From Neolecta irregularis DAH-3 (Eukaryota): DNA of 55,066 nucleotides. Shown piece by piece: positions 27,947 to 33,286 of the stretch. The position numbers and the translations under genes were made by a program. The notes under the pieces are model-generated. The model ran no database searches and was not told the DNA's origin. It saw only the letters and a list, made by a program, of their open reading frames with translations. The stretch spans positions 1 through 55,066 of the forward strand of contig LXFE01000122.1 of the NCBI GenBank assembly GCA_001929475.1, given 5' to 3'. How positions within the stretch are numbered: position 1 is the stretch's first letter; the number at the start of each line of letters is the position of its first letter.

Positions 27947-28110
27947 TTTTTGTGAATGTATTCGGTTTGTGGTTTCCCGATAAATCCAGCACAGCTATAC
28001 GCCTCTGACTACACTGTATAATATTTAGCCTTTCCATATAGTCAAATAATTATTATATCAGTTACTGAATCAAAGGCCGATTTCACGAGTTGCCCTCCAC
28101 AATTTCGTTA

Positions 28111-30614
28111 ATGAACACCACGCAGGGAGAAGACGCTGAAACTCCAAGTTCTCGTAAAAGTCCACACAAAATGTCGTCCTTGACATTGCAGAATTCAATT
28201 CTACAGTAACCCTCCAAGATCGAAAGTCTTCTTTACTTTACAAAGCCAAGATTTTAGCGGGCGATATTGGCAGTCGCACTGAAGCCCTTGATTGCATTAG
28301 AGAAGCTGCTGCACTAGCACCTGGAGACTCTGAAGTCGCATCTGCTTTGAGGGAATTCGAGAATGCAAGTAAACTTGGTTACGATATTTCTGCCAATGAC
28401 TTTATCACCGAAACAATTAATCGCACCGACATCAATTATCTCAAGTATCTACGGAATAAGAGTATTCGAGAACGCTTTCTTGCCGAAGGGATAGCAGAAA
28501 GAATTCGCGAAAAACTGAAAAGCGATAGCCACAGACAGCGTGCAATTGAACTGATGAAAGCGTTTTCCGTCCTTGAATCCAAGATTTTAGATCAGTTTTC
28601 CCAGAATCTCAACGCGGACGATATCTGTCTACTCGCGACGGTCGAAACTGGCATTGAACTTTTTCCTGACCTGGCTGAGAAAATAAAAGATTGGCCTTCG
28701 CCGGATCACAGATCAGATATCTTGAAATCCATCATCGCAACTCTCTCAGGCCTGCTCCCCAATGTAGAGGACAATAAGAAGAAGAAAATTCTCCATTCGT
28801 TAGCACGCTTAATTGCTCAATTTGACATCACGGTACATCTCGCCAAAGATCATGTCTGGTCAATCCTCATCTGCCTAGATCGACGAAAACCTGAACAGAT
28901 AAAGAGTCTTGCCACTATCGTCATCGCAAAACTTGTTGAAAAATTAAAACAAACGGATCGTACAAGTCTCTGCGTGTCGTTTTTCTCCGATTATTTCTCG
29001 TCAGCATGGAATGAGCGGGACGCCGAAAGTATGGTTACGGTCTTATCGTCGTTCACTGTATTATTCCAGATAGATATGCAGATAGCAAGCAATATCTACG
29101 AGCATGAGAAACTTTTGGAAAATGCGAATGATTTATTGTTGAATCCAAATATTCAAGTTAAGAGAGCAGCTTTGGATTTGTACAGGAACGCTGTGTCTCA
29201 GGCTCGGCTACGAGCAGAATTTTCATCGAGGAGCACTCCATTATTACAGAGTTTACAGGAGGACAGCGATCCGGAAATCCGAATATCTACCTGCGTTCTG
29301 ATAATCAAGGCATATCAAGGGTTGAAGGGTTCAGATAATCCTTTCTCTATGGATGAACTTGCCTCCAGGCTGCAATTTTCAATCACAAAGGATGGTCCAT
29401 TTTATAGGCTGGCTATTGAAGGTTTAGCATTCGCTAGTGCCGATCCGTTATTAAAGGATCTCGTTAGTAAAGATCAGAGCTTTCTTGCGGCACTTGTGGA
29501 GTTGATTAAACTGCATCCTGCTGACGGACCTATGGTTCTTGGAGCATTAACAATATTTTCAAACATTTCGCGCTACAGTGTGAAGAAAACCGAAGAGGAG
29601 CAACAAGTTGAACGTCTGCGAAAAGCTGCGCTTAGGAAGAATTTTGAAATGGAATTACTCCCTGAATCAGATGCCCAAGTCAAGCAGCGTTGCTTGCACG
29701 TTCTGCATGCTGGAATAGTTCCAGTTCTAGGATTGATACTAAAGAACTTCAGCCCCACTTTCCGACATCTTGTCGCTGAAATACTTCATAGTCTCTCCTC
29801 GACTCCAGAAAATCGCGGTCCCCTTGTTCAGCAAGGTGTTTTAAAAACCCTCGTTAAGCTCTTGGGACAGAAACAAAATAAGGAAGAAAATGACCTAAGA
29901 GTTATAACGAGTCAGACGATTGCAAAAATCCACATATCTCTTAGTCCACGTATTACGAATTCAAGTTGTCCGGCCGAAACAGCTATAAAGTGTCTGGCCG
30001 ATCTTTTAAACAACAATGAACTGAGTCAAATTGTACATTTTGAAAGTCTCGTTGCGTTGACTAATTTGGCCTCTGAAGATGATAATAATCGCGACTCGAT
30101 CGCAGAGCAGACATGGTCGCAGATAGAAATGATGTTACTCAACGATAATCATATGATTCAACGGGCTTCCGCTGAGTTGATTTGTAATCTAGTGGTTAGT
30201 CATTCTATCGCCGTCACAAAATATATCGACGGATCATCGACATCAAACAATCGTCTTAAACTATTATTGGTGCTGACTGATGTGGAAGACTACCCGACTC
30301 GGAGAGCTGTTGGTGGAATTTTGGGCACGTTGACGGGATATGAAGCTATTTGTGACTCAATCGTAGATCAAAATTTGGATGCTATCTTGCGTCCCTTCGA
30401 CGACAAAGCGGATGAGATGCTTCTCAGAGGTTTCGTATGCCTTCTTAATATCATTTGTAATACCACAAAGGAGAAGGATCTTTTTTCATTTCTTACAACT
30501 ACTGCTTCATCCTCTAAAATCCTGAAGGCATCTCAATCCACCAAAAATGAGGGAGTTTTGCAAGTTGTCGGAAAAGTTACCAAAGAGCTTAAGCGTAGGA
30601 AGATTATACAATGA
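28111..30614 (+). CDS. UCS-domain myosin chaperone (Rng3/She4/CRO1/UNC-45 family)
   Basis: AIEGLAFAS, NRGPLVQQG, FESLVALTNLAS, IQRASAELICNL. One 5' intron. Confidence 0.88.
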
Positions 30615-30718
30615 GATGATTCTACAATGAGATCCCGGAAATACAAAGCCTATGTAAATATTCTCTTGTATTAAATAAAGAGAATATGTACATTTTGGAT
30701 CGGTCGAGAGTCCTTAAC

Positions 30719-32110
30719 ATGACACCTCTCTATCTTTATTCTCCCAAAACTCTGTGCAAAGACGTACGAACAACGCTAGAAAAAGAAAACATATATGATT
30801 CGTCCCGCAAAGTTTTCTCCTCAGGGCGACCTGAGGTTCCTGGCAATTACATGTCAATTCCGATAATATCCAACCAACTCGAACAATCACTCAAAAATGC
30901 AAACACAACCTTCTCACGACTACGTGATTTCAAACACTTGGGACTCAAGCAGACAGAATTATCAATTTATATTGGGACAGAATTGAGACCAGAGTTGGTC
31001 ACGAAAAAATATACTCTTCGCGATATTATCAAGAGATTTATTACGCGCTGCCCACCAGAGCTAGCCTCATCTACTGTGATTTTACTCGAAGATTTACCCA
31101 AAAGATGGTGTGTTTTTCGGCATTATGGATGTATTCTCAACCTATAAGGACCCCCTATCCACCGATGGTTTTGCTATCTTCAAATTCATTTACATCAAGC
31201 ACATGGGTAAATTACCTCGATAACCTCAAGAAGGATGATCGTGATGAATTTTTCAAAGAGGTCGCAAGCTTTTATGGAGTTTCACATCTTGCTCTTAATT
31301 TGTCAATACCAAATGACGACTTACTTCGTCGACCTGAAAAGCTCAAACCTCTCTTTGGTGATTTCGGACCTCGACTTGATTATTCTGTGGAACCTACTAC
31401 GAATGACTTTGAGGAAGGTTTTTGGGTAACGACCACACAGAATAAGATTCATCAAACATGGGCTCCCAGATATACCATGTTTAGTCGGGGTAATATCTCG
31501 GAGAAGGCACGGGTTCTGAATTTCCCTCAGATAAAAGATGAAATAGTTGTTGATTTGTATTCTGGGATTGGATATTTTGCATTTTCGTATTCTTTTGCAG
31601 GAGCCAAACAAGTGGTTTGTTGGGAACTGAACCCTTGGAGGTATGCTTGCCAATATCTTGAAATTATTAAGTCCAGCAAGTGTCGAAGCAATGTGCCGAG
31701 GTGTCTTGAAAAACAATTGGACTGTTCGAGTTGTTCGTGCCGATGAAGATGTTGTCCTCGAAGCAGAGACTGCAAAACTAGTGATTTTCATGGAGAATAA
31801 CAATCAAGCGGAGCAGCGGTTGGGAAAGGTCAAGGCTTGTCACATCAACCTTGGCCTTTTGCCAGATTGTCGCAAGATGTGGGAAGCATCAGCTCGAATG
31901 ATTACTAGCGCAAAGGCAGCCTGGCTTCATGTTCATGAGACCGTTCACGAAAAGAAAATAGATGTGTGGAGAGAAGAAGTACAAGCGTTTTTCCAACGGT
32001 GTAAAGGATCAGAGTGGATCATCAAGGTAGAGCATATCGAAAAGGTAAAAATTTATGCCCCGTATGTCTATCATGTAGTTGCAGATATTTGCTGTACTCT
32101 CAAATTTTAA
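30719..32110 (+). CDS. TYW2: tRNA wybutosine-synthesizing protein 2
   Basis: QTWAPRYTMFSRGNISEKARV, VVDLYSGIGYF, WELNPWSVE, HINLGLLP, KVKIYAPYVYHVV. Two introns. Confidence 0.9.
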
Positions 32111-32173
32111 ATTGATGAATCACCGAAATGACACTAGTAAAGCTAATCGAGATTCCATGTCCTAGTCAAGGCA

Positions 32174-32820
32174 TCAGGACGACCGAAATTTTGGTGGAAT
32201 GTTTTTGAAAACAATCTGCGACTGTATACCAGGCTCATTACCATCATGATACAACTCGTTGTGCTGTGCGAAATGCTCTACAAAGTAAGCTATGAGACCG
32301 CATATTGACCAACCAATGTCTTCGGGATGGTTCCATGTGTCTTCGCTTCCTTCAGCATCGTTGAGGTGATATTTTAACACATGATGGATATCAAACTGTA
32401 ACAAATCAAACATTCACATCGTGGGTAGAAGGGCTTATCTGTTTCCTCATCAAAGTGATGTCCGAAGTTATAAGTGATTCCAGGATCGGGTAAACTTCCA
32501 CCATTTTTCTTGTATTCCAGCCATTCATTCAACGAGATCACACCATCCCTATTTCTATCTATCGCATCCAATACGGTCTTTTCAATTGACTGGCTGATGT
32601 GCTCAGGTATGTTGGCATCATGGTCTGTTCCATAAAGGGCACGGATTTCATGGGAATCCCATACCCCATCATTATTTAGATCGTGCAGGGTGAAGAAAGA
32701 ATTGGCGTCATAAGCATAGATATTATGTTCATCTTGCATATGCATATTCTCCCAGTCAGCCGCAGAGAGTGCTGCAAGAGCTGCAAAGATTGTCAGAGTG
32801 TAATGATAGGAGCGACACAT
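32174..32820 (-). CDS. SSP120: Secretory-pathway EF-hand protein, Ssp120-like
   Basis: Signal peptide, HMQDEHNI..YDANSFFTLHDLNNDGVWD, DRNRDGVISLNEW, GHH...IHH, HPEDIEHF, NIPPKF. Confidence 0.85.
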
Positions 32821-33286
32821 CAAGGGTCGGTCAGGGTCAGAGGGGGTAGCGTAAGAACAATAGTTCTTACCATACACGTGAAGACATTATCTTATTTACG
32901 GACATTAATATTTGGGGTATATAGTCTGGTAGGATCACGCATACCTAACCAAGTTCACGTATTTAGGTTAGATATGCCCTGTAATCAAGCTCACATACTT
33001 AGGGTAGAAGAAAACCGAGTCTTATTGTACTTTGGCCAAGTACATACAGGTAGCATATGGCGGTTATCAAGTTGATAATCCCCTCCAAGTAATTTTTGCT
33101 ACAGGCTCAGTATAAAATCAACCCAACGTACTCAAAGGACAACAGTTTTTAACAGATACCATCGTGATACATGCCACGGTTCCAAAAGAAACGAGAATAG
33201 AAAACCATACACTCCACCATCATGCCAGATGCTCCCAATGAACCAAGCATTCAAGACCCACAAGAAACCCTTCAGTCCTCGCATTT

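Follow-up and report, generated by a model that had tools for sequence, protein, structure and literature searches.

Introns with AT-AC ends that are removed by the U2-dependent spliceosome are an established class, known in Dikarya too. In one survey, 24 such type II introns were found in five species, 15 of them in human, 6 in mouse and 3 in fly (PMC1557818), and the metazoan representatives are described as having a strong /ATAAGT donor consensus (PMC5029451). Among the fungi, a nested AT-AC intron in RPL30 of Saccharomyces cerevisiae was reported as a side product of 1–2% whose donor departs from the U2 AT-AC consensus (PMC5029451), and 13 AT-AC introns (0.014%), one of them confirmed by Sanger sequencing, were reported in the basidiomycete Ganoderma lingzhi (PMC11590231). 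AT-AC introns in Dikarya also appear in bulk counts (PMC7072748, PMC6176087, PMC3033335, PMC2846911). In engineered yeast introns that combine an A at the first position with a C at the last (Parker and Siliciano 1993; Chanfreau et al. 1994, cited in PMC1557818 and PMC11585973), an A.C pair replaces the G.G pair of the terminal bases.

The intron described here, 41 nt long and located in the SSP120 gene of Neolecta irregularis DAH-3, adds to this class a member with RNA support, a skipped AG and an indicated homologous GT intron. It resembles the animal type II introns, such as those of human SCN4A and SCN5A, in its AT-AC ends, its strong ATAAG-type U2 donor, the absence of U12 signals and its location in a conserved coding gene (PMC1557818). 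It differs from these in being only 41 nt long, in residing in an ascomycete for which no minor spliceosome could be detected, in the 9 nt from branch to end, in the unused AG that follows directly, and in having a probable GT homologue in another phylum. The RPL30 case shares the ascomycete host, the AT-AC ends and the lack of a minor spliceosome, but in SSP120 the AT-AC form is the only one seen, is needed for the protein and has a consensus donor. As in G. lingzhi, the host belongs to Dikarya and the intron of a coding gene was missed by automatic annotation, although the phylum is different. Unlike the engineered yeast introns, the SSP120 intron is natural, fixed in the genome and followed by a competing AG at +2. 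It presents a natural and apparently constitutive A.C swap of the first and last bases, for which engineered yeast introns and a few dozen introns of animals are otherwise the main examples; it leaves the knowledge of spliceosome classes unchanged. In the literature searched, we found neither this intron nor any other AT-AC intron of Neolecta or Taphrinomycotina described; the per-species tables of PMC10639083 and PMC7072748 may list this species.

The window analysed is the whole of contig LXFE01000122.1 (55,066 nt), part of an assembly of 14.18 Mb in 4542 contigs with a GC content of approximately 43%. The minus-strand protein that starts at position 32820 contains EF-hand domains according to Pfam, and its homologues carry the name SSP120 in protein searches. 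All features of the family are present, namely a secreted protein with a pair of EF-hands, the GHH-x9-HH and HPEDI motifs and the C-terminal NIP-x-KF. The gene is present in a single copy in the assembly, and its spliced coding sequence of 570 nt encodes 189 amino acids. The nearest named relative is a Saitoella protein with 43% identity, consistent with a position in Taphrinomycotina. In yeast, Ssp120 is described as a partner of the lectin Emp47 in ER export (10.1101/2025.11.30.691377). The coordinates of the gene and its splicing signals are collected in Table 1.

Table 1. Features of the SSP120 locus, in positions of the window.
Feature	Position	Strand	Basis
SSP120 exon 1, with ATG at 32820, hydrophobic N-terminus, two EF-hands and GHH motif	32439..32820	-	Pfam, homologue alignment
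5' splice site, CAG/ATAAGC	32433..32441	-	7/9 Watson-Crick matches to the 5' end of the genome's own U1, 7/8 without +1
AT-AC intron, 41 nt, phase 1 in a conserved Glu codon	32398..32438	-	Joint in run X2, placement, family spacing
Predicted branch motif TTGAT, with the branch A at 32406 (-9 relative to the AC end)	32405..32409	-	Motif only
Exonic AG directly after the AC end	32396..32397	-	Possible acceptor, unused in the X2 contig
SSP120 exon 2, 84 nt	32314..32397	-	X2 joints, alignment
GT-AG intron, 36 nt	32278..32313	-	Joint 32277->32314 in the same X2 contig as the AT-AC joint
SSP120 exon 3, coding part to TGA, with C-terminal NIP-x-KF motif	32174..32277	-	Alignment
Apparent 3' UTR, approximately 850 nt, overlapping the convergent TYW2-like gene	31325..32173	-	X2 coverage

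Two sequencing runs of one study, here called X1 and X2, hold the region. X1 is DNA and may be the source of the assembly; its contig equals the assembly over positions 28000–32896, with no differing letter and no gap at a depth of 409. X2, which had been labelled 'DNA?' by guess, proves to be spliced: its 15 listed joints include 13 GT-AG introns of 33–49 nt on the minus strand, none of which is found in X1 (2 of 17 joints are unlisted). At SSP120, the X2 joint 32396->32438 skips exactly 41 nt with one base of slack at a depth of 722, and it can be written in only two ways, as AT..AC (32398–32438) or as TA..CA one base off. The length of the X2 contig (953+83+310=1346) is obtained exactly when nothing is inserted at the joints, and the bin depths of 546.9 and 706.4 are reproduced exactly without a second contig across the AT-AC intron. 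This RNA support comes from one contig of one run, and since contigs drop rare isoforms, the efficiency of splicing is not readable from it. The 41-nt AT-AC intron is thus confirmed to be removed precisely from the SSP120 mRNA.

The same boundaries follow from the protein. On the minus strand the intron (32438..32398) starts with ATAAGC and ends with TTGAT-TTGT-TAC, between an upstream exon ending in ACAG and a downstream exon beginning with AGTTT. Excision of the AT-AC intron leaves nine residues between the histidine pairs, excision of a 44-nt GA-AG intron would leave eight, and an AT-AG intron would lead to a stop after 128 amino acids. Among 151 homologous proteins, 60 matches to the motif were obtained, of which 14 lack the second HH, and the HH-x9-HH spacing was found in all 46 that have it. 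A later count in 325 proteins gave 189 out of 189 with the nine-residue spacer, using a search pattern that had already fixed the position of the Glu. The AT-AC excision restores the nine-residue spacing, and the conserved protein depends on it. No GT-AG or GC-AG pair in the sequence of the intron region preserves both histidine pairs, and each of the GT donors that keep the frame with the AG at 32396 (32541, 32574 and 32664) would remove the GHH motif. Excision of the 36-nt intron 32278–32313 brings back HPEDI-EHF. The protein stored for the gene on this contig is a 148-aa read-through of the AT-AC intron, so that the conserved C-terminal third is missing from the current gene model.

A preliminary description made from the letters alone had named the gene SSP120, placed the 41-nt AT-AC intron at 32398..32438, argued from the family spacing and seen no plausible GT donor, all of which is borne out by the homologue names, EF-hands and family motifs, the X2 joint and its placement, the 46 of 46 spacers, and the loss of GHH with every frame-keeping donor. 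The cDNA junction that it proposed to inspect is provided by the spliced X2 contig, which joins at the AT-AC ends. Two doubts that it raised have been removed: an assembly error creating a false AT-AC is contradicted by the X1 DNA contig, which shows 0 differences, and an unspliced pseudogene by the spliced X2 contig. The gene model was right in its AT-AC intron and incomplete in its 3' part, where the GT-AG intron 32278–32313, supported by an X2 joint, had been missed.

It is very improbable that the joint is an artefact, whether from an assembly error masking a GT-AG intron, from template switching during cDNA synthesis, from A-to-I editing of the +1 position or from an antisense GT..AT intron. 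Such readings draw on the possibility that X1 is the source of the assembly, on the fact that X2 cannot check the bases of the intron, on the GTAAC with which the plus strand of the stretch starts, and on a spliced joint of antisense type nearby (29626–29658). However, with the junction fixed by RNA, a masked GT-AG intron needs two separate miscalls, and the X1 contig with its depth of 409 has none. The homology at the junction, only 1 nt, argues against template switching. If +1 were edited and read as G, joining should shift to the CAG two bases further on, and the resulting frameshift is not seen. An antisense origin is contradicted by the same X2 contig, which carries a minus-strand GT-AG intron and keeps the plus-strand intron of the neighbouring gene.

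The AT-AC ends and the phase 1 position would also fit a U12-type intron spliced by a surviving, diverged minor spliceosome, a reading that we consider extremely improbable. The donor ATAAGCCC agrees with the U12 site ATATCCTT (RTATCCTT) at 3 of the 7 positions after +1, which is below the match of 5 ordinary GT introns nearby, and no CCTTRAY or CCTTAAC-like branch motif is found within the 41 nt. In the genome, searches at E<=1 recovered U1, U2 and U6 (3/3) and none of U11, U12, U4atac and U6atac (0/4), a result that falls short of proof in an assembly fragmented into 4542 contigs. A scan of the 55,066-nt contig with Rfam gave 0 matches. Searches for SNRNP25 and CENATAC were blank, as were their positive controls. 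In favour of the U12 reading, a U12-like motif pattern matched 15 times in the genome as compared to 2 times in the reversed control. However, the SSP120 locus is not among the matches, and the 10 of the 15 that were inspected look like repeats or chance, three of them forming one tandem repeat; none of these 10 combines an AC or YAG end with open frames on both sides that it would join. Neither Ascomycota nor Basidiomycota yielded convincing minor introns in the available surveys (PMC10639083, PMC11347168), in line with the statement of the preliminary description that ascomycetes are generally considered to lack the minor spliceosome. A 44-nt GA-AG intron, which the same description had kept as its alternative and which would use the CAG acceptor at 32396, is refuted as the main isoform, as the RNA joint skips 41 nt and not 44 and the spacer would have eight residues as compared to nine in 46 of 46 motifs.

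The donor itself points to the major spliceosome. It was judged by its matches to U1, following the criterion of a U2-type donor except at +1 (PMC1557818) and not the weight matrix of that study. Outside +1, the AT-AC donor matches U1 at 7 of 8 positions, as compared to 3–5 in all 13 RNA-supported GT donors nearby. Ordinary GT donors here are weak (GTATGC, GTATAT, GTTTTC, GTTGGT), and a strict donor and branch pattern with GT..YAG ends (MAG/GTAAGY) matched 12 times in 14.18 Mb and 9 times in the reversed control. Near-consensus donors are therefore rare in this genome, as the pattern barely exceeds the control. The AT donor is at the extreme top of donor strength here, as is the case in animal U2-type AT-AC introns (PMC5029451, PMC1557818). 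By a simple score, the best branch motif lies at -7 to -10 in 9 of 13 local GT-AG introns, and at -9 in the AT-AC intron. Every testable feature of type II AT-AC introns is present, and none of the U12 features that gave an informative test was found. We consider it highly probable that the SSP120 AT-AC intron is U2-type, constitutive and removed by the ordinary spliceosome, its U2 dependence being most likely in view of its signals and of the minor snRNAs that were not found. The earlier assignment to U2 and not U12 agrees with the donor matches (7/8 to U1 outside +1, 3/7 to U12), and the search for U11 and U12 that had been suggested as a check recovered neither from the genome at E<=1.

In the mechanism that we propose, U1 would pair with every donor position except +1 and +6, which would compensate for the A at +1. 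U2 would define the branch at the TTGAT adenosine 32406, 9 nt from the end, as in the surrounding introns of 33–49 nt. In the second step the first base A would pair with the last base C, replacing the usual G.G, so that joining would occur at AC and the AG two bases further on would be passed over. Such a role of the terminal bases is consistent with the rescue of G1A by a last C (PMC1557818) and with the non-canonical pairing of the first and last intron bases at exon joining (PMC11585973). The sequence TACAG offers an AG 11 nt from the branch A, and the AC that is used lies 9 nt from it; its use despite the nearby AG may be explained by the A.C pairing. A genome-wide AT..YAG pattern gave 9 matches (control 24), one of which is the SSP120 locus and the others of which show no family continuity; these numbers are too small to establish that an AT donor requires AC. 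Because a competing AG lies two bases off, the intron is a ready reporter for first-base steering of 3' site choice in an ascomycete with short introns. Loss of Prp18 was considered as a cause of relaxed 3' ends (cf. PMC10711555) and rejected, as Prp18 is present in three pieces; the conserved loop of the protein was not found.

Other candidates of this kind were sought in the genome. AT..AC patterns are not in excess genome-wide, with 8 matches to one pattern (control 14) and 38 to a second (control 38), but three of the 38 have family support: SSP120 itself, an ICMT-like gene and ETF-alpha. The support was assessed by Pfam on 76 flanking segments of at least 25 aa from 42 loci, a length by which genes with shorter exons could be missed, and, apart from the locus L114 described below, the remaining matches among the 38 had none. 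The ICMT/STE14-like gene holds a 38-nt candidate, CAG/ATAAGC..TAC/AG (G000:C706:4724-4761; L092:1504-1541, plus strand), whose flanking exons end and resume at Pfam positions 41 and 44, exactly two residues lying in between, at E values of 1.8e-4 and 0.039 that are below the cut-off. The ETF-alpha candidate is 51 nt long and in frame, CAG/ATAAGT..TAC (C4319:8352-8402; L097:1504-1554, plus strand), with an AG three bases before the AC. Both are candidates from sequence; RNA support applies to the SSP120 intron only. A further 39-nt in-frame AT..AC stretch (L114, pattern match at G000:C980:8647-8688, minus strand), with CAG/ATATGC and a TTGAC at -9, lies in a long frame of no Pfam family and is at most a possible candidate. 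We regard it as unlikely that these loci (SSP120, ICMT-like, ETF-alpha and perhaps more) belong to a small set of U2-type AT-AC introns that the fungus maintains in conserved genes, with near-perfect U1 sites that are otherwise very rare in the genome and with the AG seen by U2AF early in assembly, the first two bases of the exon, separate from the joining AC.

The origin of the SSP120 intron was approached from its homologues. In 21 stored proteins, the Glu is replaced by Gly, and the best hit of each of these among 20 named panel proteins is from an Agaricomycete; without the cluster duplicate P0271 and the annotated model P0286, 19 are left. Three of the Gly read-throughs pass a whole in-frame intron and resume at E-F-F. 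The residues that follow give G-E, G-A, G-M, G-Q, G-K, G-T, G-V and G-P, as expected for ordinary U2 donors, and in no case the G-I-L of a U12 donor. Because a G/GT at phase 1 encodes Gly, these read-throughs indicate that Agaricomycetes very probably have a phase-1 GT-AG intron at the same base as the SSP120 AT-AC intron; they represent one clade and come from a search for which one of them served as the seed. The site is uninterrupted in Protomyces-like read-throughs (P0006, P0272-P0274, P0280). In other read-throughs the break falls at several codons close by in this short motif, for which reason parallel intron gain is possible, and the history of fungal introns is described as dominated by loss (PMC8476143). 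In metagenomes, all 80 SSP120 loci that were kept (of 221) have no intron at the site, but the pattern demanded an unbroken motif and is uninformative on frequency.

We favour, with reasonable but not strong confidence, an old phase-1 GT-AG intron that changed both of its terminal G's in place in this lineage and is still GT in Agaricomycetes. The GT-AG ancestor could have survived both changes since its donor would have been unusually strong. The Agaricomycete intron thus indicated would form a rare before/after pair for the origin of AT-AC introns. A single event without a mis-spliced intermediate would have sufficed if a 2-nt deletion in the donor of a GT-AG intron located 2 nt downstream had produced the AT donor and shifted joining from the CAG to the AC that precedes it, leaving the mRNA unchanged. 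The geometry would give an identical mRNA in two of the three supported cases, SSP120 and ICMT-like, which both have AC followed by AG, and not in ETF-alpha. If the class outlined above is real, this AG/AC arrangement would allow a GT-AG intron to become AT-AC and slide by two bases through one 2-base deletion, while the protein stays the same; such a one-step route to AT-AC introns and intron sliding was not found in the literature searched. However, the Agaricomycete read-throughs place the intron at its present position and not 2 nt downstream, no stored protein breaks with Val after Glu, and the AG in SSP120 is largely fixed by the Glu codon, being present in 58 of the 80 intronless loci. 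We therefore consider the deletion unlikely. Still less likely is descent from an ancient U12 AT-AC intron that kept its ends and acquired U2 signals as the minor spliceosome disappeared from Dikarya: minor introns are reported in early-diverging fungi (PMC10639083) and the intron position may be as old as Dikarya, but the SSP120 intron shows no U12 trace and the residues after the Gly in the Agaricomycete read-throughs fit ordinary U2 donors. An origin by some other route is given the same low probability as the relic.

Several further features of the locus and the genome were observed. The second SSP120 intron, ending at 32313, is in phase 1 in the codon after HPEDI, and the Protomyces-like read-throughs P0006 and P0272-P0274 break in that codon as well, apparently in phase 2, one base off. 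Downstream, X2 record 10 spans 31325–32277 without a gap, including the predicted plus-strand intron 31641–31676 of the neighbouring gene, and the depth of 722 over SSP120 compares with about 16–20 over the convergent TRM5/TYW2-family gene. The stretch of approximately 850 nt past the SSP120 stop is likely a long 3' UTR with antisense overlap, although a contig over two genes does not prove a single transcript. The joint at 29626–29658 is 33 nt long with CT..AC ends, lies inside a plus-strand UNC45-family ORF and looks like a spliced antisense transcript (GT-AG on the minus strand).

Directly upstream of the SSP120 start, a dispersed repeat with short internal hairpins (32851–33040) has 31 matches in the genome, including itself, at 73–98% identity. 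Inside it, X2 contains one further listed joint, 35 nt with GC..AG ends on the plus strand (32976–33010) and 22 nt on its short side, which may stem from another copy. The genome has two U2 snRNA genes (G000:C1656:7780-7971 and C1111:935-1126), which are identical in the 5' part that pairs with the branch and diverged in the 3' half. The U6 snRNA gene (L005, G000:C1963:269-417, minus strand) is interrupted immediately ahead of the AGC triad by a GT-AG intron of 50 nt, presumably similar to the intron of the S. pombe U6 gene.
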